64,000 nt of DNA from positions 10,788,001 to 10,852,000 of the forward strand of contig CM022674.1 of NCBI GenBank assembly GCA_012295275.1, written 5' to 3'. Below are positions 9,463 to 44,998 of the stretch, piece by piece (position 1 is the first letter of the stretch; each line of letters opens with the position of its first letter). The notes beneath the pieces were generated by a model that saw only the letters and a list, made by a program, of their open reading frames with translations, ran no database searches and had not been told where the DNA came from. Source of the DNA: Chrysomallon squamiferum. Its lineage: Eukaryota > Animalia > Mollusca. A program made the translations under genes and the position numbers.

Positions 9463-10440
9463 ATGTTGTGGAATTTGCTGCCAGTTCTTGGTTTATTAGC
9501 AGTTTTCTTAACTTCGACCGAATCAAAATCAAGTGATGGTAAGTTAATATCAGTTTAAATACTTGTGAAATAACAATATTAAAAATTAATTGTGCTGATT
9601 GGTTTTAGAAATTAATAAATTTAAAAAAGAAAGAAAAAGAAAAACTATTAATATTATTAAAAGTTGCATTTACAGTTAATGAGCTGTTGTTATTATTATT
9701 ATTATTATTAATTTAAAATAATATTTGCAGCGTTAGGAAGTATAACAAAATAATAAATTTAAATAGGTTTTTGTTAAACATTCTCATAACTTTTTAAAAT
9801 CCAGATTCCAACTTACATTGTTTATCTGTGTCACGTGTGTGCAATACGTCACGTACATTACCCGGTTTTTGTTCAGCGACAGCACACAGATTTCCCACGA
9901 ATACTAAATAATAAAGTACATTGTTTCACCTAATCTTTGTATTTCACTCCCAGTATATTACAACACAAGTAAATGTAACTAACATGAAATATAACTATAC
10001 AAAATTTTAAAAATTAAAAGGATTCAAAAAAAAAAAAAAAAAAGTATTATTATTTTATTTATATATATTTTTTAGAGAAAAAAGTACAAATATAAATTTA
10101 ATAGGATTAGAATTTTATCTGTTCTTTTACCTTTTTTTTTGTCAGATTAAAAATTTTCATTCTAATGAATTAATATCACAGCAAAGGAAACACACACAAA
10201 AAAAAAAAAAAAAAAAAAAAAAAAAGAATATTAATAATAATAAAAAATCATATCAGTGTTGCTTAATAAATTAACTCACTGCTTATTTGTACATGCATTA
10301 ACTGATATACTGAAAATGTTTTAAGCACTTGAGATAATTTTAAAATAATTGAAGAACAGAAGAGGAAAAAAATATATACTGCATTAACACCATATTATAT
10401 CAAATGATAACTAAAAAATTTAAGTTATACTAATATACTT

Positions 10441-10485
<45 letters not shown>

Positions 10486-11699
10486 GCTGATTATAGGCTA
10501 TTGCTAAGAGGTACTGCTTTTATTTCAGCAATATATACATAAGTCAGAGAAGCTGAAAAAAACAACAACAACTCAACAACAACCTGATTGTGTTACATGC
10601 TTCATACAAAGAAATTTATAATTAATACTGGTTTACTTTATAGAAGAATTTAAAAAAAATTCTGAATATTTTCCAACTCCCTGCATCTCCAGGGACAAAA
10701 AGCTCAAACCCTGCTCGTGGAGGTGATCGTTACATTTTTGTATTTAAATTTTCAGGTCTGCTTGTTCTGACCATTGCCACATCTGAAACAGATGGATTCA
10801 AACGATTCATGGCCTCTGCTAAGAAGTATGGACTGGATGTCAAGGTAATAACAAACTGTACTTCATCATAACATTTACTACTTCATAAAAAAGTACTTCA
10901 TTAAAAAACAATAACAAAAAAGACAACAAAAAAACAATGCATATGATTATAACATTATAATAAACATTACTTTATTACACAAAAAGTAAACAAATTACAA
11001 AAAAACAAACTAAAAAAAAACAAATATATGATTACAACTTTAAAATAAATCATACTTCAGCATAACTATTTTTCAAACAAAACTACTTGAATATAAAAAT
11101 ATTGCTTCATTATAACACAGTATAGTTCATTATATAATAAATTACTATTTCATAGCAAAAAAGCAACAAAAAACCCATTAATTAATAAAAAAACTTCAAT
11201 TTACTAAACTAATTATAATTATAACAAACAATTTTAATAGGGAAATTTACTTATTTGTGATAACAAATAAATATAATTATAACAGAATACACATCATTAT
11301 AAGGTAATGTTTATTAAAAGCAAATTGTTAGGTTGTTTAACAAACTGCAGCTGCATTTAACCAGCTATCAGAAAGGTGTCAAGTGACCTAACCAATTAGT
11401 CAGCTTTGTACATACATTTCACAGGTGTTGATGTTCTTGCGGTAAAAAGTGGTTAACAATGAATTTTTATGATTGCCACAGACACACACAAAAACATGTT
11501 GAGTAATTGTAATAGAGAACTGTACCTATCACTTGTGACATTGATTCACTATCCTGACAGAATTTGACACCATTTTAAATATTAGAACCCATTAATTATT
11601 TATCTGGTTGAATTAGATGTCATGCATATGCAGTCAGCCTGCAAATGTATACACAGATAATACTGAGAAACACACATTGCAAGTATGCACAGATTTATT

Positions 11700-11744
<45 letters not shown>

Positions 11745-12463
11745 ATTATTATTATTTAAGGAATATGTATATAACAATACTGCTTAATTCAGTGTTATCT
11801 TAAAGGTTCTAATATTTATTTATTAATATATTTTATTGTAATATTTCAATGGATTTAAATGAAAATATTGAATATATTTTATATAAAAAATGTTATAGAT
11901 GAGTTATAATATATGATATAATATTATTATAATACTTATTTGTTAAATAGGTGAAAATGTATACTTTGTGTTTAAGTCTATTTAAAATCAGTATAAATGT
12001 ATTGCAGGTTCTGGGGCTTGGCACAAAGTGGGAAGGGGGGGATGTGGCAAGATTTGCTGGTGGAGGACAGAAGATAAATATCTTGAAAGAAGAACTGAAA
12101 AAATACAAGAGTAAAAAGAACAAGCTCATCATGTTTGTTGACAGGTGCGATAAACATCGATTTTATATAAATGAATGACTGGTATATATGTATACTGGTT
12201 CATTTTCACTGTTTTCAGTTGTACCAAATTAGTTTATATTTAAATAAGTTATTACTTGTCACAGATTTTTTTTTTTATAATATGATTTATGAATATTTCT
12301 TATTAATTTATAAATTTAATTATGTATTACAAAGTATAAATGGTTAACTTTACAAAACGTTATATTTTAGTTTGTCATGTATTACAGTGTTTATGTATTA
12401 CTAACATAATACTGAGGTTAACTGTTGGTATCAAAACCATTTTAAATGAAAGTACTATGAAAC

Positions 12464-12506
<43 letters not shown>

Positions 12507-12730
12507 TATAATTATAATAATAATTATAATAATAATTATTATTATTATTATTATTATTTAATTTTTTTTTTAAATTTTAATTTTTATAATATTCTTTTTT
12601 AATAGTTACGATGTTGTTTTCACTGATGGTGAACCTGCCATTTTGGAGAAATATCTCAAATTTGATGCTCGGGTTGTGTTTTCTGCTGAAGGTTTCTGTT
12701 GGCCAGATTCAAGCTTGGCTGTGAGTATAA

Positions 12731-12789
<59 letters not shown>

Positions 12790-15642
12790 TAACAATAAAA
12801 AAATTAAATAAATAATTTAAAATAAAAATCATACCTGTGTGTTAAGAGAGTTTAGATACTATTTTTAACATTGTCATTATGTTAATATTAAAAATTGCAT
12901 TCTAAGTGTACAAAATTGTATTCCTAGTGTACATGTGTGTTAGGGTTTATAGTTGCCTGTTTACAAGCAAAGCTGAACATATAAATGTTAGATTTCTGAA
13001 TCTATTTTTTAATTAATTTAATTTAATTTAATTTAATTTAATTTAATTTTATTTTATTTTATTTTATTTTATTTTATTTTATTTTATTTTATTTTATTTT
13101 TTAACAGAAAGAGTATCCTACTGTGAAGAGTACTGAGAAAAGATATCTGAACTCTGGAGGTAAATATATTTATTTATGTAAAAAAACAAAACAGAAAATA
13201 CAGCAGTTTAACCACGTGTGCTTTATTATTATTTTGTTTTATATCCTGGTTTGAAACTGCCTGTTTCTCATTGCAGGGTTTATGGGCTATGGAAAGGAGC
13301 TGTATGAAATAGTGACACATTCTAAAGTGGACAACAAAGATGATGATCAGCTCTACTACACAAAGATATTCCTGGACAAAAAGCTTAGGGTTTGTATTTA
13401 AATCTGTACAAAAAGCTTAGGGTTTGTATTTAAATCTGTACAAAAAGCTTAGGGTTTGTATTTAAATCTGTACAAAAAGCTTAGGATTTGTATTTAAATC
13501 TGTACAAAAAGCTTAGGGTTTGTTTTTAAATCTGTACAAAAAGCTTAGGGTTTGTATTTAGTTCTGTACATAGCTGCAGTTCCAGTAACAGTCATACAAT
13601 ACTCCATTGAGGATCCATAATCCAAGATTCCAAATCCAAACATCTGCAAAATCTTTAAGCAGCAAAATGCTGATTGTTTCTAGTTATTTTATGGTTTAGT
13701 AAAATTATTTTAAAATATTAAATAAAATTATCTGTAAACTATATGTATAAACTGTATATGAAATAGAAATAGATTTTGTCTTTAATTTAGATCCTGTTCT
13801 CATTAGATTCCAAAATCTGAAAAATTCTTATATCCTAAACTTTTCTAGTTTTACGGATTTCAGTTAAATGATCCTTAATTTGTTCTTTGTTGTACCTTTA
13901 ACTACCCTGTAATGATTTGTATTTTCTAGTGTAAACTTCAATTAGTACTATACAGATATTTCTTTATTCACTGTTCTAATTATTTGTAATTTATTATAAA
14001 AATATTAATCTGAATGCAGATTAGTTAGTTATACAAGTTAAGGTACTGTCTGTGGGCATAGAAAAAATAGTTTTGTATATGTATCAGTAAAGTTTGTTTT
14101 TAACTTCAGGACAAATGGAATATCAAACTGGATACTAGATCAGATATCTTCCAGAACCTTAATGGTGCTTTAGGTAAGTTAGTGCAACTCATTTAAACAG
14201 TTAGATTATTTATTATCTTAAATGATCAAGTTCAATTTATTTTGGAATAATAAGCCTTCATAAGGTTGAAAAGTTTAAATATCTGATTTTTAGCCACATT
14301 TTTTTTAAAATTTTAGTCCACAGGCACATTTAGCTGAAAAAGCTGTATCTGAAATCTATTACAAAATATTACATATCAGAAGCATCAAATTATTTGAAAT
14401 AGACAGTAAAATACTACACTTATTCTACAGAAATTTACATTAGTCACTGGATAACAGTATATTTATACACCATAAAATCACTTTTCAATGGATACATCGG
14501 ACAAAATATTATATAAAAAAAAAAAGTATCTTAGTAAGATAACCAATATGATAATTTGTTTTCATTTACTGTAGTTTAAACTAGAGGAGAAACACACAGA
14601 GGAGTTATGATGATAACCTGTGATGATCATGTCTGAAATGCATCCCTTTTTTTAGAAATCTTTAAATTACTGTCAAAAATACAGTTAAATATACACTGTC
14701 TTCTGCTGCATTCAATTAGTTCTGACAACATGACTTCAGTACCACAGAATGTTACTAAATGTATGTAACTGTAAAAACTGTATGCATATTTTTTTGTTTG
14801 TTTTTCTTACAGGTGACACAAATATCAAGTTCAAAGGATCTCACAGTTACCTGTACAACATCATGTCAGGAACCACACCCATTGTTATCCATGGAAACGG
14901 GCCAATAAAGGTTAATATTTCACTCATAGTTTGTTTTTGAAATATGTTTTATACTTAATGTGATGATATTTTGTTCTGTCATACATATTCATTAGTTTAC
15001 ATAAGTCACATGATACCTGAATATGTTGAGTGTTTTAATTAATATGTAAATGAAAAATAGAATAAAACTGTTATAATTAAAAATGACATATTGAAAATAC
15101 AGTAAGAATTTTTATTTATTATTTGGTGGTCTGTTACAAATGTTATTATTTACAAATCACTAAGTGATATTGTTGCAAAATTGATTTGTTTTAAATTAAA
15201 TTCATTATTTATAAAATCCTATGATATAAATAAATCCTTAATTTTATTTGAAATATTTTTTTCAACTCTTCTTAATATGGTAAGAAACTGATGACTGTCA
15301 TTTTTTAAACTAAAATGTTCTTGTAGGTGGAGTTTAACAGAATGGCAAACTACCTTGCAGACGGATGGACTGTCAGCTCAGGCTGTCAGTCGTGCAGACA
15401 GGACACAATCAGCTTGAAGTCTCTGAAGGTGATTTTTTAACTTCATCTAACTGAACACTTCAGTTTGTTACTTTACCTGCTGTTTGTGAATTGTGTATAA
15501 AGTTTACAATTTTGAATTCTCAGCTTAAATTGTTTTGCCTTTATAAAATGATTTAAACAATTAGAATCATTAACTGAATAATAGAAATAATACTCGGTAT
15601 TCATTAAATATATATTATTACCATTATTATTATTATTGTTAC

Positions 15643-15706
<64 letters not shown>

Positions 15707-18700
15707 TGTAACTGTATTTAATTTTATTATAATTTTTTAGAAGTCAGACTATCCCACAGTTGTGATGGCTTTGTTTGTTGAACACAACACAGCTTTCGTT
15801 GAAGAATACTTCCAACATGTCTCTGAACTGAATTATCCAAAGAATAAAATTGATCTTTTTATTCACAATAATGTAAGTATAATTCTTTCAAGTGTTTTTT
15901 TAGATGTTTTTATTTGATTGTTGAGATTGTCATGGTGTATTTATCTTCTCTTAACACTGTTATAATTAATACCTCCAGCTAACTAAAATAATATTCTAAT
16001 ATATTATTTTTTATTTTTTTACCTTACAGACAATTTACATTGTTCTTTGCATACAGTCTTATAACTCTAATGTTCTCCTGATCTCTACAGTTCCATTTTC
16101 CTTGTCAAATAGTTGATTTGTTCTTCATATAATTAATTCAGCTGTTCTTTTCTCTCTCATTAATTGTTTTCACTCGTAACAAATATGTTGAACTTTTATC
16201 ACAAGTTACAACATAGTAAAACATTTATTTCATATAAAAACTTAGTAAAACTTGTGGTACATGTAACAACTTAGTAAAACTTTTATTACATATAAAAACT
16301 GAGTAAAACTTTTATTAGGTGTAACAACTCAGTAAAACATTTTCATGTGTAACAAATTAATTTAACTTTTTTTCACAAACCACAATTGTTCTCACTTTTA
16401 GTAAGCCACAAATATTCTCACATTTAACACATCACAACTAATGATAGGATACAACATATGTTACACAGCTGATAATGTAAAACAAATGTTTGCTATTGAA
16501 CTACAGGTAGAGAGACACAGCAAAGTAGTATCAAAGTTTGTGGAGCAACACAAAGACGAGTACAATTCTGTTAACTCTGTTGGACCATATGAAGAAATCA
16601 GTGAGGGAATGGCTAGAAACTGGGCTGTGTAAGTTACTTTCCTTCATAACTTGTTAACGTTAAAACAAAGGTAAACATTTCAAACCAGTTTTTGGATGGA
16701 TTATTGTAAGCAGTGTAGACACCAGGGAGGGAATTTAAGAAACTAGGCTACATAAGTAACATTCCTTGATATTATCTTTAATATTAAAAAAGGTTAAATT
16801 TGGATCTGGGGAAAAAAAAAATAATATATATATATATATATATTATATATATTGGAGAGAATATAAATATTTTAATATGTCATCTGTGATATGAGCAACA
16901 GGTTAACATGGTAACAGAGGTAGACCACATTTCAGTACTGTGTTTTTTAACAATGTGAGGAGATATCAGCTTTCAAGTGACTGCTTGAGGGAAACATCAG
17001 AAACTGGTCTGTGTAAAAATTATTTAGCTCATGTTTCTAATACAGTATTTGTTACAAGTTTAACTGTGTAATTGTTTTGAAGTATTCTGGTTTCACCAGC
17101 TTTTAAAGTGTGCAAGATTGTAATTATTATTATTATTTTTGTTTTGCCAGCGAGGAATGTATAAAGAAGAACAATAATTACCTGTTTGTTGTTGACTCAG
17201 ATGCTCAACTCACAAATAAAGATACTCTGCAGCTCCTCATTGAGCAGAACAGGTGAGATAATTAACTTTTTATTATTTAATATATATTTTATTAATGTGA
17301 TGTTTCTTATGATTTCTTACTTTTAGTATTATTATTATTTTTAATGATTCTGGAGATGTTTAACAGAAAAACCATGGACAGTTATTATTTAATTTTATGT
17401 TCAAGCTGTAATATGCAGGTATGAAATATCTTGAATATTTCACACACAAAAATGAATAGATACTATTTTCTAATTCTAGTTATTATTATTATTATTATTT
17501 TTTAATAAATATTTGGGAAACATATTGAGAATCATTTTTATTTGATATAAAATGTTGTTATTGGTTTTAGAACTATTATCGCACCTCTGTTGATCCGACC
17601 AGGAAAACTGTGGTCAAACTTCTGGGGAGCAATCGGTGACTCTGGTTTCTACGCAAGGTCCATGGACTACCACGAAATAGTAGAAAACACCAAAAAGTAA
17701 TTTTCATTCATTTTAGTTTTTGTTGTCTTTTTCTCTTTCCTTTTTATTCTGTTTATATCAAATATACTTTTTTTTCCCTGAATTCATCCTTCTTCTCCAA
17801 TTTCAAATATTAAGACAGTTAATTTAGAAAAAAGAACAACTGAATACAAAATAGTTATATCATTTTTATATTTTTCAAAATTTATTTTTTAATGTTTTGT
17901 GCAGAGGTCTATGGAACGTTCCGTTTATCAGCATCTCATACTTGATCCAGGGACGTCAGCTGGATCAGATGAGAGATGCTTACACAAAACACAACCTGGA
18001 TCCTGACATGTCTTTCTGTAAGCAGCTTAGAGAGCAGGTTTGTATGTGTGATATTTTCATATAGGTGCAGAAGCTGCCATATTTCATCATACGTACCTAC
18101 AGTAATTGATAGCAAAAATTTTACTCACTAATTTTTTTGTTATGCTGTACATGGATTTATGGATTTAGAATGCTGTAACAGATAAAAATAATGATCAAGA
18201 TTTCAGAAACATTAACTTTTGTTAAGTATTCTGTAAAATTTGAAAAATAGTTTTTTCCATGTTTTTCTGCTTTGAAGTCATTATGCTTCTACAACTATTC
18301 TTAACTGACTTGTTTTCAGGGAACATTCATGTTTGTGTCGAATGAGAAGTATTTTGGTCATCAAACAAACAGTGACAATTATGATCCAAATCATCTGCAT
18401 GACGAACTCTACCAGATATTTGATAATGCACTCGTGAGTAATCCCCCTTAATTTCATTGTTTGGTGTTATAAAATGTTTATCTCCCATGGTTTTACTGAG
18501 TTATTTCCCTTTCTTTTCTTACATTTGTCCATGAATTGTGAAAAACTTTGTCTTTTATTATATTCTCCATGTCTGAAATCTTTATAGTTTCATTGTTAGC
18601 TCAGTTATTGGAGGATCAAGGTTCAAATCCCCTCTATGATGATTTTGTAAACTATTTAAATTTGTTTTGTTTGTTTATTTGTTCATTTGAATTCATTCAT

Positions 18701-21700
18701 ATGTTTACTTGTTTATTGGAAAAAAAATAAAAATAATAAAAAGTTCAAATAAATAAACAGTATACAAATATTAAACATTAATTTAATCATTTTTTTATCA
18801 TGGAATATGCATGGTTGTCTGGCTAGAAAATACTGTTTAGGCAGTTTCTGTTCTATGTTTTAATTCAGGACTGGAAACAGCGATATATCCACGAGGACTA
18901 CTCTCGCCAGCTGGCAGATGGTTACGTGAATGAACAAGTAAGAATTCATTTAATATTATCTGATTATAACTGTTACACAAACTAAACAGTGAAACTCTGA
19001 ACTGCTGCGCTACCACAAGAAAACTGCTTTAGATTAACTCTTTATATTTGTTATTCTAATTATTTTTTATTATTAATCACATTAAATGGAGTAGATTATT
19101 ATTATCATTATCACTATCACTATCACTATCACTATTATTATTATTATTATTGATACACAGTGGCTGTTATTATTGTTAATGTTGGCTATATATTTTGCTG
19201 ATAATCACTAAAATGAAAGTACATAACAAGGTAAATAGTAATTTTTTGTTTGTTAATATCTTTAATACTGTTATTAATAATAAATGAATTTATTGTTGAT
19301 ACTGTTCAGAGTATTGTTGTGTTATTTTACAGTTATTGTTATTCAACTCTAATCTTTAATTTAATTATCACTGGTTTTGTTTAACTGATATTTTTCTTCC
19401 AGCCCTGTCCTGATGTTTACTGGTTTGCTATTTTCAAACCTCAGTACTGTAATGAGCTTATTGAGGAAATGGAGAACTATGGACAGTGGTCAGGTGGAAA
19501 AAATCAGGTGAGTCCTGGACGACATCAGCATAAATTTCAGTTTATGACACCTCAGTGGGTGTGATAATCAGTATAATGTGATATTTTACATACTGCAATT
19601 ATCATGTCTGTGTAGTTCATATCTTGAGTTTGTGAATTATTAGTTTATGTCTGACATGATTTTTGTTCCTACAGCAAACTCATTATTGATCACAATATTC
19701 CTGATTCATTTTTTAAATCTCATTTATATCTCTAATTCATTTTCAGTTCTTGTTTTTAGACTCATTATTATTATTATTTTTGATATAGAGAATATTAATT
19801 CATATCAATTCTTATTTTCAGGACAGTCTGTTTCAGGTTCCATGTTTGATTCTGTTGTCTCTGAACAGGACGTATATTCATACTGATTCATTTCCATGGT
19901 TTTGTTACTTGATTCTAAGCTTGTCTATTTCTAGGATATTCGTCTGGCTGATTATAGGACATATATTCTTACTGATTCATTTCCATGGTTTTGTTACTTG
20001 ATTCTAAGCTTGTCTATTTCTAGGATATTCATCTGGCTGATTATAGGACATATATTCTTACTGATTCAATTCCATGGTTTTGTTTGATTCTAAGCTTGTC
20101 TATTTCTAGGATATTCATCTGGCTGATTATAGGACATATATACTGATTCATTTCCATGGTTTTGTTACTTGATTCTAAGCTTGTCTATTTCTAGGATATT
20201 CATCTGGCTGATTATAGGACATATATTCTTACTGATTCAATTCCATGGTTTTGTTACTTGATTCTAAGCTTGTCTATTTCTAGGATATTCATCTGGCTGA
20301 TTATAGGACATATATTCTTACTGATTCATTTCCATGGTTTTGTTACTTGATTCTAAGCTTGTCTATTTCTAGGATATTCGTCTGGCTGGTGGGTACGAGA
20401 ATGTGCCGACTGTTGACATACACTTCAAACAGCTGGGAATGGAGCCATCCTGGCTGGAGTTTCTCCGTGTGTACGTCCAGCCACGCTGCAGCATGCCGCC
20501 TACATCGGCTACTTTAATGATGTAAGTTGTTTATTTTGTAGGACCCACGGTTACCCAGCGGGTATGAAAATGTTCCCACCGTTGATATCCACATGAAGCA
20601 GATTGGAATGGAAAATCAGTGGTTGCATTTTCTCAAGGAATATGTTATGCCATTGCAGCAAAAAGCTTTCACTGGATATTTCTCTGATGTGAGTTGCCAA
20701 TGGTTACCACATGCATGATGTAGCTAGAGTTCTGAGCATTGTACAGTGATAATAATGATAATGATAATAATGATAATAATAATGTTAATAATGATAAAGA
20801 TAATGTTAATGAGATGAAGAATTAAAGAAAGCTTGGTGAAGTAAATTTAAATGGTATTACAAATTGTTAATGAAACATCTTTAATCTGTTGTAATTGTAT
20901 TTACATTTATAAAATTCTGTAACAAAAAGTTAGTTTTTAAAAAAATTGAAAAAGTGCATGAAAAATATTTGTAAAAGACCCTTCAAAAACTTCATTGAAA
21001 AAGTCTCATTAAACAAGATTTATCTGATTTAATAAAAAAAAATATTTTTGGTTGAGTTTATCCTTTTCTCACTGATGAAAAACATTAAATAATGAATTGG
21101 AGTCAGATAGTAAAATTCAATCTCTGTGAAGCTGCAGTTACACTAATGCAATACAAAGTGGAAGACAGCCACACAAGTTACTCTTTTCAGAATTCTGATT
21201 AGGTAAAAGATGTGAAAAATAAATTGACAGAAAATCTGTTTTACTGCACATTCTTACTTTGCTCTCCTACCTGTGCAGATGCTTTCCAACACATCAGTAA
21301 AATGAATTTACACATCATATGTGTGTAACCCAAATTTGTTTTATATGTGCATTAACAAAACAGCACATTCTAAATTATTTTGACTGCCAGTCATTAACAC
21401 TTAGCAGTTGAAATACACAAAGAAACTCCATTGAGAGGGATAGATCTAGCTACCTCTCAAACCTGGGTCTACAACAGTGAGTTTTGAAAGTGTTAAGAAT
21501 ATTTACCTTTTTATCCTTTGTTATAGTTTCACTCATCATTTATTGATATAATTACTGAAATATTTATATAGTTGGTTGACAAATAATAAAATAATTTCAA
21601 TAGATGTGTACTGGTTTATTGTGTAAATTATTATATTTAAAATAACTGTATTTTAATTAGAAATGCATCTAGGTGTGTTTGTGTGTGTTTTTATGATATT

Positions 21701-21781
21701 TGTGTATCTTTCTATCTATATATGCATATATATTATTTGTCTGTTAAATCTCTGTCTATCTATCTCTCTGAACATCTTTCT

Positions 21782-21816
<35 letters not shown>

Positions 21817-22673
21817 CACACATGTGTATATATGTGATATATGGTTTTAGAAAAATAGTCTAAATAAAATAATCTGTATACTGGTTACATATTTGACCAG
21901 TTCATACGTCTTACTTACTCAGTGTTATTTGTTATTTTCTGTTGTACCTTTCAGCCTCCTCATGCTGTGATGAATTTTGTGGTGAGGTACAAACCAGATG
22001 AGCAGCCTTTTCTGCGACCACACCACGACTCCTCCACCTACACCATCAACGTGGCCCTCAACAGAGTCAACACTGACTTTGAGGTAATGTTGTTAACAGC
22101 ATGAATGCAAACATGATTAGTGCCTGGAATAAGCAAGCTAAAGATGATGAATCTGCAGTATTATGTAAATGTAAAAATTACTCTGTAGTGTGTGTGTGTG
22201 TGTGTGTGTTTGCATTTGTGTTTGTCATTTAATGCAGAATTAATACTTTTTATATTATTTTATTTCATATATTGATTACAGATACAATAAGAAAAGAAAA
22301 TATTAATAGCATTCATTTTCTAACAGAATAAAATGAATGAACATTAAATTTAATTTTATATTGTCTAGTATAGAAGAATGTATCTGGGATATTTGAAATT
22401 AATAATTCAGTATTTGTTACATACAGTAAACAAAAATATATTAAACTAAAGGTATAATGATAAAAATATCACAGAAATGAGAAACTCATTTTAAGAGAAA
22501 TGAATTGTTGTATTCAGGGAGGAGGTTGCAGGTTCATTCGCTACAACTGCAGCATCACGTCGCCGAGACAGGGCTGGATGTTCATGCATCCTGGACGACT
22601 CACCCACTACCATGAAGGACTCCGTGTTACCAAGGGAACCAGATACATCATGGTCTCCTTCGTTGACCCTTAG
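9463..22673 (+). CDS. PLOD: Multifunctional procollagen lysine hydroxylase/glycosyltransferase (PLOD/LH3-like), 20 coding exons, 726 aa using exon 18b
   Basis: Manually spliced; all introns are GT-AG and phase-consistent. Exons: 9463-9538, 10756-10844, 12008-12144, 12606-12720, 13108-13159, 13277-13389, 14110-14173, 14813-14910, 15327-15428, 15741-15872, 16507-16628, 17151-17252, 17571-17696, 17905-18037, 18320-18433, 18869-18937, 19403-19507, [20373-20521 or 20542-20688], 21955-22083, 22518-22673 (2181 nt). Signal peptide [23 protein letters not shown]-domain motifs [46 protein letters not shown]. Central WSNFWGA. 2OG-Fe(II) motifs [34 protein letters not shown]. Confidence 0.97.
13376..13570 (+). 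repeat. 32-bp tandem repeat x6 that contains the PLOD exon 6 splice donor
   Basis: acaaaaagcttagg|gtttgtatttaaatctgt starting at 13376, 13408, 13440, 13472, 13504 and 13536. Confidence 0.95.
19868..20388 (+). repeat. 85-89 bp tandem repeat x6 that contains the PLOD exon 18a splice acceptor
   Basis: ...gattctaagcttgtctatttctag|gatattcrtctggctg, with the AG ending at 19934, 20023, 20109, 20194, 20283 and 20372. Confidence 0.95.
20373..20521 (+). CDS. PLOD: PLOD alternative exon 18a (homologue of 18b; 149 nt, apparent 2-nt insertion near 20483-20485)
   Basis: tttctag|GAT acceptor and GAT|gtaagt donor. Encodes [37 protein letters not shown] and, after removing 2 nt, [12 protein letters not shown]: 49 aa, colinear with 18b. 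Confidence 0.8.
20542..20688 (+). CDS. PLOD: PLOD alternative exon 18b (147 nt, intact)
   Basis: ttttgtag|GAC acceptor and GAT|gtgagt donor, phase 0-0. Encodes [49 protein letters not shown]. Confidence 0.9.
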
Positions 22674-28264: not shown

Positions 28265-31200
28265 TTAAACAAACTCGTCTTTTATAGAGCTGATTTTAGC
28301 ACAGATCTTGAGAGCAGGCCCAAGCTTTATGTTCATCGCAGTCATCAGGTGGTCTTCTTTGAGCAGCAGCAGAGCCTGGCCGTCGATTTCTTGAGACCGG
28401 AACTCTTCAGCGTACGATGAGCAGCCCGGCAGTGAGTTGATGAATTCATACACCTCACTCACCTGTGAGTAATAAAATGTATACTTTATAGCTTTTATAT
28501 CTTATTTTCTTGTTTCTTGTTACAAATCTGCATAGTGGTATTAATATATAGTTGTTTATTTCAATAATAAATTTATTTCTCATTGCTATATGAGTGTTTT
28601 GAACAAACAGTATATTTCTGTATAAGTTTAAGTTGTTATTTTGTTTCTATTAAAATGCTGATTAAAAATGAAAGGTCTAGACACCTTATGGAAACAATGT
28701 AAATACTAAATGTATATTCTGAAGACAAAACATTAACTATTTATAACAAAAATTGTAAGCAACAACAACAATAATACGTTTGTACAAGTTAAAATACTCT
28801 GTTAAGTTAGAAAACTGAATGGTCACTTACTGTCCACTTGGCTGGGTCTGATGTTGCTGTTTCTGTGTTGGACATGTCAAAGTTAGGGTGCTGGATGGGA
28901 GAGGTTGGGGAGGAGCTACTCTCCTCCTGTCCACTGTTAGAACTGCTGAATTCCTCTCCATGAGACTGTGAAACAAAACAGTGCACACAATCAAATACAG
29001 GTTATAAGGCCAGTGATAATTTCTATCAAACATAGTAAACTTTAGATGTTTAGATGTGTATTATGTTAATGTTTAGATAAATTATATAACACACTGCTTG
29101 TACAGACTGGTAACATCTTAATTTAAATTGTAACAAATCCAATCAGTACTGAGGAATAACTGTTTTATTTGTTAGCTGTGTCTGAATTTTATTTATATAT
29201 TTTTGAGGTAAAAAAAGGAGTGCACTCACTTGCTGCATGGAACCCGCCTGATCAGGCATGTTGATGTTGTAAGACAAACGACCACCTCGCTCAGAACGCC
29301 AACCTTTACGATTCCCTACAATGTGTTTTCGTTTTCTCACAAACTTTGTCACCTTTCCAGTTAAAACTGCAAAATAAAAAAATAAATAAATAACATTCAT
29401 TTAAAACTAAATAGCTTAACAAAATTAAAAACATTTAAAACCTGTTTTAGTTCCTGAACCAGTTGAGAAACAAAAATGCAACATGTACAGAAAAAAAACA
29501 CAGAAATAATTTATAAATATATTAACTACAAAGTAGAAAATAAAACTAATCTTTTTGTTAAATCACATACTGAATTATTAAAAAAGAAAATGGTTACCTT
29601 TGTTTTCTCCTCTGAATATTGAACTTCGCTTGGAGCAGGCCACGTTGTATCGCTTGGCACACATTATAGAACAGAACCGCTTTGACCTGCGGAACTTGGA
29701 CTCTCGGTCCTGGTTTCCACAGTATTCACACGTCAACATGACTGGAGCTGGAGGTGCATTACCTTAAAGTTAATTTAACAAATAACAATCCCCAAACAAC
29801 AACACTCCAATAATAAACAAATAACAATCCCCACAACAACAATCCAGTAATAAACAAATAACAATCCCCACAACAACAATCCAATAATAAACAAATAACA
29901 ATCCCCACAACAACAATCCAATAATAAACAAATAACAAACAAACAATTAATTAATTAATTAAATGAATGAATGAATGAATAAACAAACAACAAATGAACA
30001 AAAAATAAAATAAAAACAATAAAGAACAAGTTATTAACATACTAAATAAATGGCAGGGTCAGTGCAAAATTGACGTATTTACCAAATTCTCAAAAACTAT
30101 GTTTTTACCTTTTACCATGTAATAATCTGATTTTCCTACAATATGTGCATTTATAATAGTTTTACTGATCTCAACGTTACACCAGCAGAACTCTTTATGG
30201 CTATTCAATATTTCTGCTCTGGGAGAATTACACCACTAACTGTAAAAGATGCTTTTTCAAATTTTTGCAACGTCAAACAACTGAATCAGTAAATGAAAAC
30301 CCACTGCCTGCTTAAAATGATAACAAAAAAAAAAGTCTGCTTCTTTTACTAAGTCATTGTAAACTATCATTTGGAAATATAATTATTATTTTGTTTAATT
30401 AAAAGAGGTTTCTCACTTATGTTTATTACATTCAGCAAGTTATAAAAACAGATTTTACACTACATGTTGACACTACAACAAAAGCTGTTTTCTTCGTTTC
30501 TTTTAATGGACTGAACAGTTAAAAACAAACCTTCAGGTTCCAGTACTGGGGGTGGGGGGTCCATAGAGAGATCTGGCATATCTTCATCCGACTCTCTGTC
30601 TGTCCGGCTGGGTTTTGGAGGCACGTATTCTGTCAGCAGTGACGATCTCTGAACCTGACAACAAAACAAGGAATTTCTTACTGGATATCTTGAAAGAGGT
30701 TTATTCACACAGAAAATCTTGTTTCATAATTAACACAGTGAGACAGTTTTCATTCTGAAGTACTGGTAACTATTCATTCATTTGTTCAAATGACTTTAAA
30801 GATTTATAATTTCATTATTTAAATAAATGGAAAATCTTATAAAAATCTGAACATGATTCAAAATAAATATTAATGAAAAATAAATAAACAATAATAATAA
30901 TCATAATAAATTAATTAATTAAAATAATAAATAATTAATAAATTAAAATAAATAAAATACTGACTGGGAACGGTTCTGGTCCCTCCTGGATAACAAAGCC
31001 TTCAATGATATGAGTCAAAATATGTGGCTTAACAATCGCCCTCTGTTTCTCCACCACAGGAGTCTGCTCTGGCAGGAGAACAGGCTTGCTAGGCACTGGC
31101 TCCTCCATTGGCTCCTCCTTTCTGGTCTCTTTACTACTCTTCACCTCACTCTCAGCACCAGATTCCTTCGTTTCTTGGGAAGAACTGGTCTCCATGGCAA

Positions 31201-34200
31201 CATCCAATGATTTACTGGTTTCTGTCTCTGTGACATCCGAGTTTGACTTGGCTGTTTCTGTCTCAGAATCCGATTGGTTCTTGGCGGCGGGTGGAGTGGC
31301 ATTTGATTGGCTGACAGGAGGGAGTATTTTGACAGGAGTTGGACTCTGTTTCTGGACTGGGTGAGTGGTGGCAGTGGGCACAGTTGTTGTGGTTTTTGAC
31401 GAAGACTTGGATCGGCTCTTCTGTTTAGGAATCACTTGTGGTATGTTCAGCTTGGTTGTCTGACCCAGCTTGGTTGGATGAACTTTGGCTGAGGATTTTG
31501 AAGGCAGCAGTGTTTTTCCTGATGGTGTTTTGGAGCCACTGTTTTTCACCTGGGAGTTATGTGGAAGTTCTATTTTGTTTGGCTTCATCCCAGCCACAGC
31601 TTGCATGTATGGCAGCTGATTCTGAAAAACAATTAAAAAAAAAAATTATAATATTTAACTAAATCTAAAAATATCTGTATTCTGATTACTGCACTAATTA
31701 TTTAACTAAATCTAACAACAAACTAAAACATGTCTATGTCCTGAAGATGTTTAATATAAGACTTCAGTTCTTCTTCTTTGTTTCTCTTGATTTTTAAAAT
31801 GATTATCCCAATCCAGTCTTCTTCCATTTGACAGATTACTATCACAAATGTGTTTATAGTTAGTTTATTCCTATTTGGCCACAATAAAAAAAAAAACTGT
31901 GATACAAACAGTACTGTTACAAGTATATTTAATGACACTACTCTTACTAAACCCTCAGTGTAGATTGTCAGTGATATACTCCTTACATACACATTAACAT
32001 TTTAACATATTTCTAATAAACCTGTCATCTTCACATCCATGTGGATTTTATATATTTTTGTTATATTACTCTGTGTGCATATGAAAACTGATAAAACTGT
32101 CTGTTTTAAAATGTGATATATATTCAAACTGCCAACATGCTGCTGTTCTCATTTCAGATCATACTGTACTCGTTGTCATGGGAACAGTGTTTAGTGTTAT
32201 CACTAAATGAAAATATCTTGCTTATTTTGTCACAACTGAGCATATTGTTTGTTTTCTTTCTGGCGTGAAATTGCCCCAGTGTCAGTATTAGTAACTAACA
32301 TTCACACATGTTCATATATACAGATATACTCATAAACACACGTGCGCATGCTCACACATAACATATAAACACAAACACACACACATACACACACACTCTA
32401 CCACTAACAAAACACACACATGTAGTCATATATATACGAATAAATATGTAACTGCCAATAATTTAAATACAACAACCATAAAATCAGAAAGGGGACATCA
32501 CAACAAGATACTAAAGGTAAAAACCCACTAAAAAAAATAAATAATAATAATAATAATAATAATAATAGTAATAATAGATTCTATAAAACTAGGGTACTAA
32601 AAAAACCCAATATAAAATACAAATATAACAATATTTCCCATTAACAAAACATAAAATATCTAAATAAGAAAATTTCTTAACAATAAAATTTATTTACAAA
32701 ATCTTTATTTTTAATTTAAATTTTCTTAATTTGTATAACATTAATAATGTTATTGTTAGAAAAAAAAAAAATATATATATATATTGAATTTTTTTTGCAA
32801 TAATAACAATACTGAAAATACAACAATAATATGAATTGTTCATTAAAGAAAACCTAATTTTAAATCTAAAACAAAAAACAAAAAAACAAAAACAAAAACT
32901 GAAAGATAAAGAAATGAAAGGATGTACAAAAATTGGTTTGTCACAACAGATTATAAAGTAAATTCCCCCAAAACACAGAGAGCACCACAGCTCAACAGAG
33001 AGAGATAGAGACTTACGACAGAACTTTCATTCATTCCTGGATATTGCTGCAGGAACTGTAGATTAGAAGGAACAATGTATTGGGTTTTATATAAAAAAAA
33101 AAAAAATTTAAATGTTAGAGATCATTACTTAGTGAAAATACAATATCTATGAATATGTATGGAGGTATGTGAGTTATTATATATACATATAAATAAATAA
33201 ATGATGTCAGATCCCACTTAAATAAAGATTATGTATGTCAAGAATAGTTAATGTCTGTACATAAACAATTTTAATTTAAAAAAAAGAAACTGCTTAGATG
33301 ATAAATGATAAATCTTTGGATATATAAAAAGCCTTCCTAGCTACTGAAGTTTAAATATACTCACCTGCATATTAGCCATCATTCCCTGAGGTTGTATGGG
33401 ACCAGCAGTGCGAATGTACAGAGACTGGCCTGCCATGATTGCGGGTGACTGGCCATGGCCTGTAAGCAGGGGCTGATGAGCAGCCAATGGGATTCCTTGT
33501 TGCAAATTAGCCATAGCCTGTAGAACAGCCTGGTTTGTTAACAGTGGTGTTGATTGGATGATCTGCCCTGTGTTGGTGACAAGCTGCGGCTGACTGAAGC
33601 GAAGAGGTGCCTGTGTGGTGATGAGCTGTGGCTGACCTTGAACTTGACCCTTTGACTGTTGTAATAATAACAGAAAAACTATCATTAACAAATATTCTGA
33701 CAATTATATAACATATATATATATATATATATAAAATAATGTGAGGTACTAAATAAAAATGAAAAGCATTGTTTTAATTGTTTTTTGTTTTTTTTCAGAT
33801 GCAGTTTTTTGAATATGCGTCATCTGTAAATCTAATTAATTACCTGGGCAACGAGAGCTTGATTAGCAGCATTCTGACCAAAAACAGCACCTAAAAGATA
33901 ATTGTAATTTTTACTATAATATCAAATTACATTTAAACAATTCATTTTCTTAAATGTGTTGAAAAAAAAGGTAACAACATTTTTCTTCTGTTCTTTTCAA
34001 TAACAATGTTCATTAGATCATTTAAAATTTTAAACAACACCATTACCATTGTATTGAAAAAGTATTAAAATAATAGTTTAAAAAAAGGCTGAATTCCCAA
34101 TATACAAATATCAACAAAATAGAATTAAAAAATCACCAGTCTTACCAAGCTGTCCAAGCACTAATGGCTGAGCCTGTTGTGACATCACAGCAGGTTTGCC

Positions 34201-35753
34201 ACCAATCATTGGAGTTGCTTGCCCTTGTTGTATCTGATTTTGTTTTCCACTGTTTTGTTTGCTGTTGGAGTTTGTTGATCCTTGGCTTGAATGAGATGAT
34301 GTTGTTACACAGCCTTGTTGCTGCTGCTGTTGTTGCTGCTGCTAAAGGTTATAAATGTTCTCTTTGATAATCGTTATTTAAAGGCCATTAAGCATTTTGT
34401 ATATTTATGTAAGTAACAATCACACACGCACACAACATATATAGTGTCCCACACCTAAAATACACTTTCTAAATGTGAACAATTTTATGTTAAATATTTT
34501 TGGACTCTTGAATATTATATATGTATAATTTTGTTTAATGTCATAACAATTCTTAAACATTTGAAAACACAACTTGGGCAGCTTACTCCAAACTTTGATG
34601 TCACTATTTTATATAACAAATCAGTAATCTGTCACAAAGCTAAGTTTTGTATTTAAAGCTATTATCATTTTAAATAAGTTCATGTCACTACCTGTGACAT
34701 CATACTGGGTGACATTAGACCAGGACTTGTAGGACTTACTGAGGGTGGTCTCCCTTGCATCATGGCTGTCATGTTCAGCTGCTGTTGGGCCATGGCAGCT
34801 AAATAGTTAAAATAAATAGAGACGCTGTACTTGTGCTTTTATTAGCAACGAACAACAACTACATTATATATATATATAAAACGTGAATCTATGATAGAAC
34901 AGTTTATTTTAAAATCAAAATAATATAGAGTTTAAGATTAAATCATTATAAATCAGCATTTTTAATTGTAAATAATAAAATAATTAAATGTTAAAAAATG
35001 TTTTAGTATCATTTTGTACCAGTGGTTTATCATGACATTCTTTTAAAAAGAAGGTAGAATTCTTCAAATCATACAAAATAAATATGAGTAAAAATGAGTT
35101 TTGCTAAACATAATTGCACTATAAGCATATTTTGAAATGTTTTGTTTCAAAGACTGTAATATTAATGATATTTTTTTGTTTTTTAATCCATGATATTTTT
35201 TTAATGTAGAATTTCTAACAATGTTATTGAATTAATGATATCATGATAATAAAGAAAAATAATTTGGATGCCTACTAAATAAATCTAATTAGGTTATTTA
35301 TATATGTTACCATATATTCATGCATAAAGATTTTCAGTATCACAAGTTTGGTAATAATTAACATAAAATGTTATTACTACTTCACATGAAATGTATGACT
35401 ACTTTATATAAAAATATGCTACTTAACACAAAATGTATTTACTACTTAACATAAAAATAATAATACTTCACATAAAATATATTACTCTTTCATATAAATG
35501 CATTATTATTTCACATAAAATGCATTCCTACTTAACACAAACTGTTCTTACCGACTGCAGCATTCTGAAGCATGAGTTGTTGATTGTAAGGAAACTGAGT
35601 TAAATATGGCGGACCATGCATTGTCTGAGGTATTACTTGAACTTGGGGCAATGGTCCTGGAGATCGTATTGTTGTTGCCATGGAGGCAATAGGTGTGGAT
35701 GCAGTTGTGGCAGCAATGCTGCTAGGCGTAGAACTGGTTCTCTGTTCAGACAT
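28265..35753 (-). CDS. PHC: Polyhomeotic-like protein (PRC1 subunit, PHC family), 12 coding exons, about 765 aa
   Basis: Exons in transcript order: 35753-35552, 34798-34692, 34341-34146, 33890-33844, 33655-33365, 33055-33017, 31621-30965, 30654-30531, 29762-29598, 29366-29230, 28965-28831, 28462-28265. All introns are GT-AG and phases match (2298 nt). Q-rich N-terminus, S/T-rich stretch, HD1 (KPHILTHIIEGFVIQEGPEPFPV), FCS zinc finger (CEYCG...RFCSIMCAKRYNVAC) and C-terminal SAM (DPAKWTVSEVYEFI...EIDGQALLLLKEDHLMTAMNIKLGPALKI). Confidence 0.95.
29776..29945. repeat. About 37-bp tandem repeat x4-5 next to the FCS-exon acceptor of Polyhomeotic
   Basis: Unit ataacaatccccacaacaacaatccaataataaacaa. 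Confidence 0.85.
33017..33055 (-). CDS. PHC: 39-nt in-frame micro-exon of the Polyhomeotic gene (FLQQYPGMNESSV)
   Basis: Minus strand reads ccttctaatctacag|TTC...GTC|gtaagt. It is 13 stop-free codons, phase 0-0, between two phase-0 exons. Confidence 0.7.
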
Positions 35754-36313
35754 TTTTGTTGTTCTACTGAAATCTGAAACTGAATTACCAATATTCTTGT
35801 TTGTACTTCTTTCAGTGTCAAATGTAAATTAATTTCTTTATAAATGTATTTACAAACACTCTTCCATTATTATATTAAATTATATAAATAAAATGTAATT
35901 TCATGTTTTACCCAAAAATATATAAATTTTGTTATCAGTTGACAATTCTTTCACTAGATAAAACAAAATGTATATTGAATGGTAATACAGCTGTAAGATC
36001 AGAACTGAGATTATTTCAATGGTATGGAACAAACAACACTATTTCAATCTGCAATTTCAAGCTGAACTTTAAATATACATATTATATTGTCATAACGTAC
36101 TAATTTCAAAACATTGAAACGCCAAGAGTTACTTCCCTTGCTTTCATTAAACCAATTTCATATTTTCATTTATTCGTTTGAAAAACATCTAGAATGTGAA
36201 TACTACAAGCAACTGATGCAGCATTTGTTAAACAGTCACAAACACTAATATTACAAAGCAACGAATTACTTGAAAATATATAGTGAAATATACGAAATCA
36301 GTCCGTAGCTCAT

Positions 36314-37384: not shown

Positions 37385-39385
37385 GATTTGTTTGATTTGT
37401 ATTTCTAGTCTGTATCACTGTACACCACGTAACTGAAGAGTTTGATAAACTATATTTCTACTTTGTATCATTGTACATCACGTAATTGCAGAATTTGATA
37501 AACTGTTTTTCTACTTTGTATTGCTGTACGTTACGTAATTGTAGTTTGATAAACAGTTTGTATTTCTACATTACTGTACACCACATAATTGTAGTTTGAT
37601 AAACTGTATTTTTAGTTTGTATCACGTAATTTTAGAGTTTGATAAAATGTTCGCATTTCTACTTTGTATTACTGTATATCACGTAACTGAAGAGTTTGAT
37701 AAATTATTTTTGTTTCTAGTTTGTAACACTGTACATCACGTAATCGAAGTGTTTGATAAACTGTTTGTGTTTATACTTTGTATCACTGTACATCATGTAA
37801 TTGTAGAGTTAGTTAATCTGTTTGTAATTCTTGTTTGTATCCCTGTACATCGTGTAATTAAAGAGTTTGATAAATTATTTTTGTTTCTAGTTTGTAACAC
37901 TGTACATCACGTAATCGAAGTGTTTGATAAACTGTTTGTGTTTATACTTTGTATCACTGTACATCATGTAATTGTAGAGTTAGTTAATCTGTTTGTAATT
38001 CTTGTTTGTATCCCTGTACATCGTGTAATTAAAGAGTTTGATAAATTATTTTTGTTTCTAGTTTGTAACACTGTACATCACGTAATCGAAGTGTTTGATA
38101 AACTGTTTGTGTTTATACTTTGTATCACTGTACATCATGTAATTGTAGAGTTAGTTAATCTGTTTGTAATTTTTGTTTGTATCCCTGTACATCGTGTAAT
38201 TAAAGAGTTTGATAAATTATTTTTGTTTCTAGTTTGTAACACTGTACATCACGTAATCGAAGTGTTTGATAAACTGTTTGTGTTTATACTTTGTATCACT
38301 GTACATCATGTAATTGTAGAGTTAGTTAATCTGTTTGTAATTCTTGTTTGTATCCCTGTACATCGTGTAATTAAAGAGTTTGATAAATTATTTTTGTTTC
38401 TAGTTTGTAACACTGTACATCACGTAATCGAAGTGTTTGATAAACTGTTTGTGTTTATACTTTGTATCACTGTACATCATGTAATTGTAGAGTTAGTTAA
38501 TCTGTTTGTAATTCTTGTTTGTATCCCTGTACATCGTGTAATTAAAGAGTTTGATAAATTATTTTTGTTTCTAGTTTGTAACACTGTACATCACGTAATC
38601 GAAGTGTTTGATAAACTGTTTGTGTTTATACTTTGTATCACTGTACATCATGTAATTGTAGAGTTAGTTAATCTGTTTGTAATTCTTGTTTGTATCCCTG
38701 TACATCGTGTAATTAAAGAGTTTGATAAATTATTTTTGTTTCTAGTTTGTAACACTGTACATCACGTAATCGAAGTGTTTGATAAACTGTTTGTGTTTAT
38801 ACTTTGTATCACTGTACATCATGTAATTGTAGAGTTAGTTAATCTGTTTGTAATTCTTGTTTGTATCCCTGTACATCGTGTAATTAAAGAGTTTGATAAA
38901 TTATGTTTCTACTTTGTATTACTGTACGTCACGTCATTGTAGTTTAATAAACATTATTTTCAGTTTGTAACATTGTACATCACGTAATGTTAGAGTTTGA
39001 TAAAATGTTTGTTTTTCTACATGTCACGTAATTGTAGAGTTTGATAAACTGTTTGCATTTCTACATTACATCACTGTACACCATGTAACTGTAGTTTGAT
39101 AAACTGTTTGTATTTCTACATTACATCACTGTACATCACGTAACTGCACAATTTGTATTTCTATATCACTGTACACCATGTAATTGTAGTTTGATAAACT
39201 GTTTGTATTGTTAGTTTGTATCCTGTACATCACGTAATTTTTGAGCTTTTAAAAATGTTTGTGTTTCTAATTTGTATTACTGTAGGTCACGTAATTGTAG
39301 AGTTTGATAAACTGTTTGTATTTCTAGTTTGTATCATTGTACATCACATGTCTGAAGAGTTTGATCAATTATTTGTATTTTACAC
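37385..39385. repeat. 57-bp satellite with a homogeneous 171-bp (3x57) higher-order core (7 copies, 37690-38886) and diverged monomer flanks
   Basis: aagagtttgataaatta recurs at 37690, 37861, 38032 ... 38887. Each unit has three related ...ctgtacatc(a/g)... subunits. Confidence 0.95.
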
Positions 39386-43135: not shown

Positions 43136-44998
43136 TTAAACTAAAGTAGACAGTTTTTCTTTTTCTCCTGACAGGGACCGATGTTTAATTTGGTCTGACG
43201 ATTTACCACTTCCTGTTGTCTCCCAAGGGAGGTAACTCTCAGCTACGTGGTTGTAGATGTCATGGTTTGCTTTGACAGGCACAGGTCCATTAGACCTGTT
43301 AGCCTGAGTACCACACGAGGCCCCTCTCAGCCTTAATTTCACCTCTGACACAGAAACATTTGGTTGCCATGACTGTGATGGAATGGCATGGAAACTATGA
43401 CGATGAGAAGACTTAGGCTGCGACAAGCCTGAGGAGTGACCCTGACCTTGGAACAGTCTATAAATATCACTTGATGTCGCAAACAGAGGCCTTCCTGACT
43501 TTAGTGACATTTCAGATGAAGCTCGAATCTGATTGGTCAGTTTTGGCGGTTCTGGAATTCGGTCAGAAAGATTTTGATTGTCAGTGTCACTGAATTTTCC
43601 TTTCACAGAATTAACATCGCAGTAATCCCATGAGTAACGATGTGATCGCCATGGTGATGAACCCACATTTGATGATTTTGGTCTCATTCGCACCTGGGAT
43701 GTGTCCACCCCATTTTCAAATGGGTTACCAGTGCGGGCAACAGAAGCATTTATGTTTGGCATTGAGGTCATGTGACTTGGTCTTTGATGAATTTCTTCAG
43801 TAGACTGACTATCTTGAGGGAAAACCTTTGTGAGTTTTGTAATCGTGAACCATTCCTTAAAATTCCTCTTTTTCTAGTTTCAGAATCTATAGTATTACCA
43901 ACAGAATAATTTGGGTCATTGTAAAAATTCCCATCAGAATGAGTTAAATCATTACAAGAAATGTTTCTGCCATTAGCCATTCTGTTATCCAAGAGTCTAG
44001 AAGACTCAGTATCCATGGCAACCTGTACCGGCTTTGCTCTGAAAACTCCTTCTCTAACATAGACTGGTCTAACATTTCCAGAACAATTACTTCCCTCCTG
44101 GACACTGTTAAAACCCTGGTCATTGGAACATTTTGGGTTTGGAACACTTTTCCTCACATTGTTCCACTCCTGTTCAACATTTGCTGGTGTCAGTGTTTCC
44201 TCTTCCTCAATGGTTGTCAAGGCACGAAGTCTCTCTATCAAAGAGTTATCGTTCTTTTCAACTGGTTGCGGTTTCTTCTTGACAACCACATTAGGTTTGT
44301 TTCCAATGACCAGACGTCCATTTCCCTGAATTTGCTGTGATTTTGAGTTTGAGTTCATGCTTTGACTCACACCTCGTTTTAAACTCCCCTGACTAGATGA
44401 GCTCTCAGATGTCAGCAGTGATGACAAACTTGATGACAAAGGAGATGATAATGATGCTGTAGTGTTGGTGCGGCTGTCAGTGCCATAGCCTTCATCAACA
44501 TTTACATCATAATCAGAACCCCGGCCCGACTGACATTCAGTTGATGTCAGTTCATAATTACCATGGTTACCGAAATCCTGAGAATAAGACAATGAAGAGT
44601 TTTTGATGTTTTTCTGTCGTTCGAAGGCTAGAAAACTGTTTTTGATGCTTTCTTCATTTTTCCTTTCTTCTTCTGTGGTCATCATAATCATACTAGCACC
44701 AGATGAGCTGCTTTTGTCACTTCCTGAGTCAATGAGTAAATCAAGAGGATCGTACCTATCCCACAATTCTTCAACTACTTCTGGCGTGATGTGTTTCAAT
44801 GGAGGTGAAAACAAAGAATTCTTGTTAATGTTAAAACCATAAAACCCGTCAGAGGTTTCTTTTTTCCAGATCCGATCGTGTTTAGTCACATTTAAACGAG
44901 TAAGAGGCTGCTGCTGAGGTGACAGCTGCATAATTATCTCCCCTGACAGTCACTCTCTTCTCACTAAAGATAGTTTTATCAAACTGCATGGATTCCAT
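43136..44998 (-). CDS. Uncharacterised Ser-rich, probably disordered protein of about 600-620 aa in one coding exon, interrupted by apparent frameshift(s); C-terminal -STLV
   Basis: Abutting ORFs 44931-43768 (387 aa) and 43771-43136 (211 aa), plus an upstream overlapping 38-aa ORF at 44998-44882. The block is GC-enriched relative to its flanks. Candidate acceptor ttctgtttttcag| at 45337. No domain recognised. Confidence 0.7.

Follow-up and report, generated by a model that had tools for sequence, protein, structure and literature searches.

Transcripts of a procollagen lysyl hydroxylase/glycosyltransferase (PLOD) gene of Chrysomallon squamiferum hold either copy A or copy B of one 49-codon exon. 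We consider it likely that A-or-B transcripts arise because the gap between the copies is too short, and that the two resulting lysyl hydroxylase (LH) forms would differ in the capping loop's distal part, in the helix that follows it and in part of the dimer pocket. The pair seems to consist of expressed, mutually exclusive exons. Such pairs are a known kind, but apparently none has been described in print for this gene family. What is new is that a mollusc has the pair, that its spacer is shorter than in any other case seen and that duplication of this exon recurs in three phyla.

Gene model, exon pair and transcripts

The gene lies in a window of 64,000 nt, which is the whole stretch of DNA that was analysed. 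The features used below are as follows.

9463..22673, plus strand: PLOD gene; each isoform has 20 coding exons, and the form with exon B is 726 aa long
19403..19507, plus strand: constitutive upstream exon (exon 17), phase-0 donor, encodes the first part of the capping loop
19867..20388, plus strand: tandem repeat, 89-nt unit present 5.9 times; the unit includes the acceptor and first 16 bases of exon A
20373..20521, plus strand: exon 18A, alternative copy, 149 nt as assembled and 147 nt in transcripts
20484..20485, plus strand: two bases of the assembly that are missing from transcripts, left out in 4/4 runs
20514..20518, plus strand: yUnAy-like motif within the final codons of exon A, a candidate branch point of exon B
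20522..20541, plus strand: 20-nt spacer, GT..AG, contains the donor of A and the acceptor of B
20542..20688, plus strand: exon 18B, alternative copy, 147 nt, open frame, nearest to the Gigantopelta exon (41/49)
21955..22083, plus strand: constitutive downstream exon (exon 19), encodes the catalytic HxD, common to both isoforms

The PLOD model, derived from tblastn and a scripted gene model, is identical to Gigantopelta aegis PLOD (P0004) at 588 of 726 residues, and all 19 modelled introns are GT..AG, with lengths of 117-1266 nt. HHD at position 655 and HYHEG at position 705 supply the catalytic HxD...H iron triad. P0004 matches GT_PLOD and 2OG-FeII_Oxy, the last two exons in the window match 2OG-FeII_Oxy (PF03171), and exon B matches human LH3 with an E value of 1e-14. 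By homology, the gene is predicted to encode a full-length protein with GT, accessory and LH domains, related to LH3.

Exons A and B are each preceded by AG and followed by GT, measure 147 nt in transcripts and are in phase 0-0. In tblastn, both align with Gigantopelta PLOD at residues 585-633 (E values of 2e-12 and 4e-22, respectively), and hence their homology is not due to chance. The initial annotation had described two homologous 49-codon exons, each with its own AG and GT, 20 nt apart. Exons, splice sites and spacer proved exact, but exon A is 149 nt long in the assembly and its frame shifts after codon 37, so that joining it to exon 19 leads to a stop at codon 55 and tblastn sees it as two blocks in different frames. 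Both this frameshift and the 89-nt repeat had been missed. The two letters at 20484-20485 are absent from all four transcript runs; the expressed exon A therefore has 49 codons, the length that had been assumed, and the letters are probably an assembly error. Such an error would make annotation pipelines drop or mis-call exon A. The shares of 26 sampled words agree with this: they amount to 0.77 in three DNA-sized runs and 0.61 in spliced runs. For spliced RNA 0.62 is expected; DNA should give 0.89 with just one of two changes, loss of the two bases or the 20571 allele, and 0.78 with both. The shares fit an assembly error and a genomic spacer, though on few words. At base 20571 all four runs differ from the assembly, which is likewise a probable assembly error or a private allele. 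The 89-nt repeat, which could be genomic or an artefact of assembly, places five decoy acceptors (19935, 20024, 20110, 20195 and 20284) ahead of the real acceptor of exon A; in the contigs the upstream exon joins the real acceptor and not the decoys.

Eleven sequencing runs were listed, nine of them with this stretch, and four, from four samples in two studies, were aligned to positions 20360-22100; the repeat and the upstream exon lie outside the aligned stretch. Two of the four are labelled RNA and two were guessed to be DNA, yet these too have spliced joints and zero intron cover. Exon A is joined to exon 19 (20521->21955) in three of four runs and exon B (20688->21955) in all four, and the end of the upstream exon appears as a loose end before A in 4/4 and before B in 3/4 runs. 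In these runs, which are assembled contigs and as such lose rare variants, neither removal of the 20-nt spacer nor skipping of both exons was found (0/4 each). The proposal that the exons are used one at a time is thus borne out at the junctions, and the A-B join that would have spoken against it did not appear in these contigs. One contig (X8 record 7; 78 nt, 20492-20569) runs unspliced through A, spacer and B, with zero cover of the introns. Two single-base read differences, 20447 and 20571, one of them in A, are both synonymous. The contig depths of A and B are of the same order in the four runs and are not taken as a ranking of the isoforms. It is extremely likely that both isoforms are real.

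Elsewhere in the window, several open frames on the minus strand at 30935-35828 resemble exons of what we take, by its motif, to be a polyhomeotic-like gene; the two pieces scanned had no Pfam hit. Two long overlapping open frames of low complexity (245 and 393 aa; minus strand, 43136-44949), also without a Pfam hit, could together form a single large exon interrupted by a frameshift, which might be a further indel of the assembly. A 465-codon open frame at 37545-38942 is built of tandem repeat and is probably non-coding.

The 20-nt spacer and the choice of exon

The spacer is about six times shorter than the shortest other intron of the gene (117 nt). A gap of this length is likely too short for the spliceosome, so that transcripts would receive either A or B. 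The donor of A, the acceptor of B and probably the branch point of B overlap, and choosing one exon would thereby block joining of the two. Since 20 nt must hold both a donor and an acceptor, the spacer itself should leave no room for a branch point. The branch-point consensus is yUnAy, and a candidate of this kind, a weak motif, lies 24 nt before the end of the acceptor of B. If the acceptor of A and the donor of B were both used, the spacer would be retained, the frame would shift so that a stop follows at codon 74, and nonsense-mediated decay would eliminate the RNA. The spacer retained in the X8 contig is what a too-short intron predicts.

In humans, a distance from donor to branch point of under 50 nt has been counted as steric interference, with 57 cases (PMC5740500); the whole spacer here is 20 nt and falls within that limit of about 50 nt. 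In C. elegans, introns of 14 and 30 nt lie between mutually exclusive exons, and their excision has never been seen according to PMC4165533. Taken together, steric exclusion of A-B joining is highly probable, in keeping with the initial proposal of an unspliceable spacer: it was never seen removed and is far below the other introns of the gene (117-1266 nt). One other mechanism was rejected and another is unsupported. A clean A+B join is in frame and free of stops, and the reading frame is therefore not what separates A and B; an RNA-structure switch at the A-spacer-B junction has no support, as the junction folds no better than shuffled sequences (z 0.75). The class of mechanism is well known, and the PLOD pair is a likely further instance, from a mollusc, in which an ultra-short spacer keeps two exons apart.

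The exchanged protein segment and its possible functions

Aligned through exon B and the spacing of D, R, D and H, the exon corresponds to residues 597-645 of human LH3. The capping loop of LH3 spans residues 590-610, the ligands of a second iron are His595, Asp597, Asp611 and His613, Arg599 acts as a substrate mimic, and Phe639 and Tyr642 are part of the dimer pocket (PMC6082870, PMC9453210). The loop moves out when the second iron is missing (PMC11897130), and the LH3 loop model is repeated in PMC13382579; what the capping loop does and how LH/PLOD recognise collagen are stated to be open in the structural papers, including PMC11897130. Of the 21 residues in the loop, the exon thus covers 14 (597-610), together with a portion of the dimer pocket. 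Equivalents of D597, R599, D611, H613 and Y642 are present in both copies, and D597 and R599 are invariant in all 289 distinct exon sequences. Position 595, which is encoded by the shared exon 17, is Asn, leaving three of the four second-iron ligands in both copies. Asn is the commonest residue at this position among the homologues read and His595 is not a requirement throughout the family; as judged from these residues, the second-iron lock of the human enzyme may be absent from both isoforms.

A and B are identical at 33/49 residues and 91/147 bases. As had been noted initially, synonymous sites are diverged around a conserved core: pS is saturated at 0.93 and pN is 0.24, the exact length is kept, the core is intact, and 20 of 31 identical residues with degenerate codons use different codons in the two copies. 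The claim that the pair swaps the active-site capping loop holds in that the segment belongs to the LH3 capping-loop region. Only three loop positions differ, however (598 I/P, 601 A/P and 602 G/S), and 13 of the 16 differences fall after the loop, including 614 F/M and 639 Y/F. Phe614 of exon A occurs in none of the other 289 exon sequences.

Conservation of the pair in relatives, the check suggested at the outset, gave a divided answer. Exon B has an orthologue in Gigantopelta, but none was found for exon A, whose best match among all the proteins gathered is 35/49, and a comparison of its first 40 codons with proteins of 22-70 aa yielded no candidate. Two versions of the exon were seen in 0/7 mollusc clusters (Gigantopelta, Haliotis, Mytilus with 15 of 20 members listed, scallops, Liolophura, Patella and Biomphalaria).

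It is likely that the two isoforms would differ in function in some way. Both proteins are presumably active hydroxylases, and the most likely reading, which we nonetheless put a little short of an even chance, is that the swap would tune the dynamics of the gate and a local preference for collagen sequence rather than act as a switch from helical to telopeptide lysines. The initial annotation had suggested a possible parallel to the specialisation of vertebrate PLOD1/2/3. In one such reading, the exon swap would stand in for PLOD1/3 versus PLOD2 in invertebrates, with helical lysines hydroxylated by one isoform and telopeptide lysines by the other. This would suit an exon that borders the entrance of the active site and a pair that recurs in invertebrates; in LH2, moreover, Bruck syndrome results from mutations of the loop (PMC6082870). 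It is weakened by the telopeptide determinant itself, two arginines (R680/R682) of LH2 that are E and P in LH1 according to PMC8055892. Just before the HxD, exon 19 has E-x-P, as do PLOD1 sequences, and both isoforms are likely of the LH1 type (R680/R682 being placed in exon 19 by inference). Since exon 19 is common to both isoforms, the swap probably leaves the determinant unchanged, and we regard this stand-in reading as improbable. Slightly less probable still is that exon A, though spliced in to this day, is a neutral or decaying copy, with B as the working exon and no functional meaning to the pair. The frameshift of assembled A, the multiplication of its acceptor by the tandem repeat, its branch length of 0.55 (0.11 for B), the unusual Phe614, the failure to find an A orthologue and the single version in the mollusc clusters would all suit such decay; the long branch, Phe614 and missing orthologue are also compatible with relaxed selection. 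Against decay, A is in frame and expressed in 4/4 runs with contig depth of the same order as B, pN stays low beside a saturated pS with the exact length kept, and the single allelic difference in A is synonymous. Moreover, B is nearer to Gigantopelta (41/49) than to A (33/49), and A is therefore probably older than the split from Gigantopelta. That two haplotypes or paralogues were collapsed side by side in the assembly is hardly credible. The 2-nt local error and the tandem repeat beside exon A are what might raise the suspicion, but A and B join the same flanking exons, X8 record 7 crosses A, spacer and B, DNA-sized runs exceed spliced RNA in words as the spacer predicts (0.77 vs 0.61, against expectations of 0.78 vs 0.62), and a nucleotide divergence of 38% is far above that of alleles.

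Distribution, origin and comparison with known systems

The arrangement, of which the initial annotation knew no other case, is not unique: the loop exon is also duplicated in pancrustaceans and amphioxus, with isoforms in automatic annotations. It occurs twice in a row in 6/134 proteins, from the ostracod Darwinula, the copepod Tigriopus, the bee Dufourea, two ants and the stick insect Timema, and cluster look-ups returned single-inclusion isoform pairs in Tigriopus, Daphnia and ants (automatic RefSeq annotations). Branchiostoma has three versions that are kept across species, one of them with P-S at 601-602 like exon B (P0095, P0169, P0177, P0175). A phmmer search against cluster representatives gave 376 hits, and three of the best 150 have two matched stretches and look arthropod-like by eye. 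A motif scan of metagenome contigs, in which taxa are judged by sequence likeness only, found at least 119 loci from at least 114 contigs; at least 14 contigs carry a tandem pair with matching borders, and many other loci are spliced, intronless or too short to reveal a second copy. Among the matches listed, the spacers of the pairs measure 38, 75, 125, 126, 288, 434-445, about 731 and about 1310 nt. With spacers of up to about 1310 nt in relatives, steric exclusion is not general for the loop-exon pair. Annotation may miss a copy, as Periplaneta has one version and cockroach- or termite-like contigs have two.

Several loci of the scan stand apart. An ant-like locus with the 38-nt spacer (L085:280-611, minus strand numbering) probably represents steric exclusion as well. 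In L018 (two), L049 and L065 (one each), further loop-exon copies lie between the normal and the next exon; they are strongly diverged and have lost YENVPT. In L009, L011, L032, L039 and L073, an extra intron splits the loop exon after about codon 20, and the borders are thus not universal. In PLOD1 of sharks, rays and teleosts, it is the next exon, which carries the HxD, that has been doubled, with annotated single-inclusion isoforms, and the nematode Toxocara canis apparently has this doubling too (P0019-P0022, P0025, P0028, P0034, P0038, P0039, P0072, P0078 in all). Fish PLOD1 was accordingly rejected as the same duplication, and Fasciola P0012 was set aside as a larger multi-exon repeat.

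Trees were built from 74 and 37 exon copies over 49 columns; Saccostrea P0092 was excluded because it lacks the motif, and the diverged second copies of L018, L049 and L065 were left out. The trees are mostly unresolved and their bootstraps not settled. Exon B is sister to Gigantopelta (99/74), A forms a long unplaced branch (0.55), and the three amphioxus copies group together (97/86; 91/74). We prefer the reading that the snail, pancrustacean and amphioxus duplications were independent, a reading that we hold fairly probable. One ancient duplication in bilaterians or protostomes, which the snail, pancrustaceans and amphioxus would have retained and numerous further lineages would have lost, appears unlikely to us. 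It would account for the identical exon borders and phase in all cases, for the P-S (601-602) that B shares with one amphioxus copy and for the S-D end that B shares with several pancrustacean second copies. The four AU tests reject nothing, including the shared groupings: p is 0.30 when B is placed with the second copies of pancrustaceans, 0.17 when A is placed with the first copies and 0.39 when B is placed with the amphioxus P-S copy. The 49 columns carry little power for or against a single origin. Against it, the amphioxus copies group together, B groups with Gigantopelta, many losses are needed, and a local clade of A, B and Gigantopelta is cheapest (1.5 likelihood units, p 0.47). Beyond the preferred independent origins, we suggest tentatively, as a somewhat doubtful extension, that the gate exon might be a hot spot: it would have been doubled or tripled independently in snails, pancrustaceans and amphioxus (the next exon in fish PLOD1 and the nematode), Pro-Ser would be convergent between snail and amphioxus, and splicing would provide tissue-tuned hydroxylases where vertebrates have three genes. 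If this is true, loop swaps would offer existing tools for probing how collagen substrates are selected by the capping loop. The isoform pairs of the three phyla differ in nothing but the loop exon, and nature has thereby supplied minimal variants with which to test the loop.

That mutually exclusive exons arising by tandem duplication recur convergently in orthologues has been published as a pattern of this class (PMC9741552), and PLOD adds a gene family in which the same exon was duplicated repeatedly. A literature search, whose scope left out most subscription journals, found, among the papers listed, none on duplication of the PLOD loop exon and none on a human PLOD1 'exon 16A'. PLOD is not named in the text of PMC9741552 or in one of its supplement files, nor in the text of PMC5740500.

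Compared with known systems, the equivalent segment of human LH3/PLOD3 likewise has D597, R599, D611, H613 and the dimer-pocket positions 639 and 642, but no second exon copy is described in the available portions of PMC6082870, PMC9453210, PMC11897130 and PMC13382579. Exon 13A of PLOD2, a cassette exon that belongs to the accessory domain and influences glucosyltransferase activity, is a different event from the swap of a loop exon. PLOD1 of sharks, rays and teleosts resembles the snail gene in having homologous alternative exons in the LH domain, but there the doubled exon is the next one downstream, with the catalytic HxD. Closest are the pancrustacean Plod pair and the amphioxus triple, which involve the same exon with the same borders and phase and, as here, annotated single-inclusion isoforms, whereas their spacers range from 38 to about 1310 nt compared to 20 nt here. 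In P4HA1, a collagen prolyl 4-hydroxylase with a tandem-exon event of age 'Bilateria' in the supplement of PMC9741552, one homologous exon likewise replaces the other, and the enzyme is again a collagen-modifying Fe/2-oxoglutarate dioxygenase; the piece swapped here is the LH capping-loop exon. As for the mechanism, exons 5B/5A of egl-15 (14-nt intron) and exons 9/10 of let-2 (30 nt) in C. elegans share with the snail pair a spacer below the minimum intron size, which physically enforces exclusion there and probably here, in other genes and another phylum, and with RT-PCR there compared to assembled contigs only here (PMC4165533).
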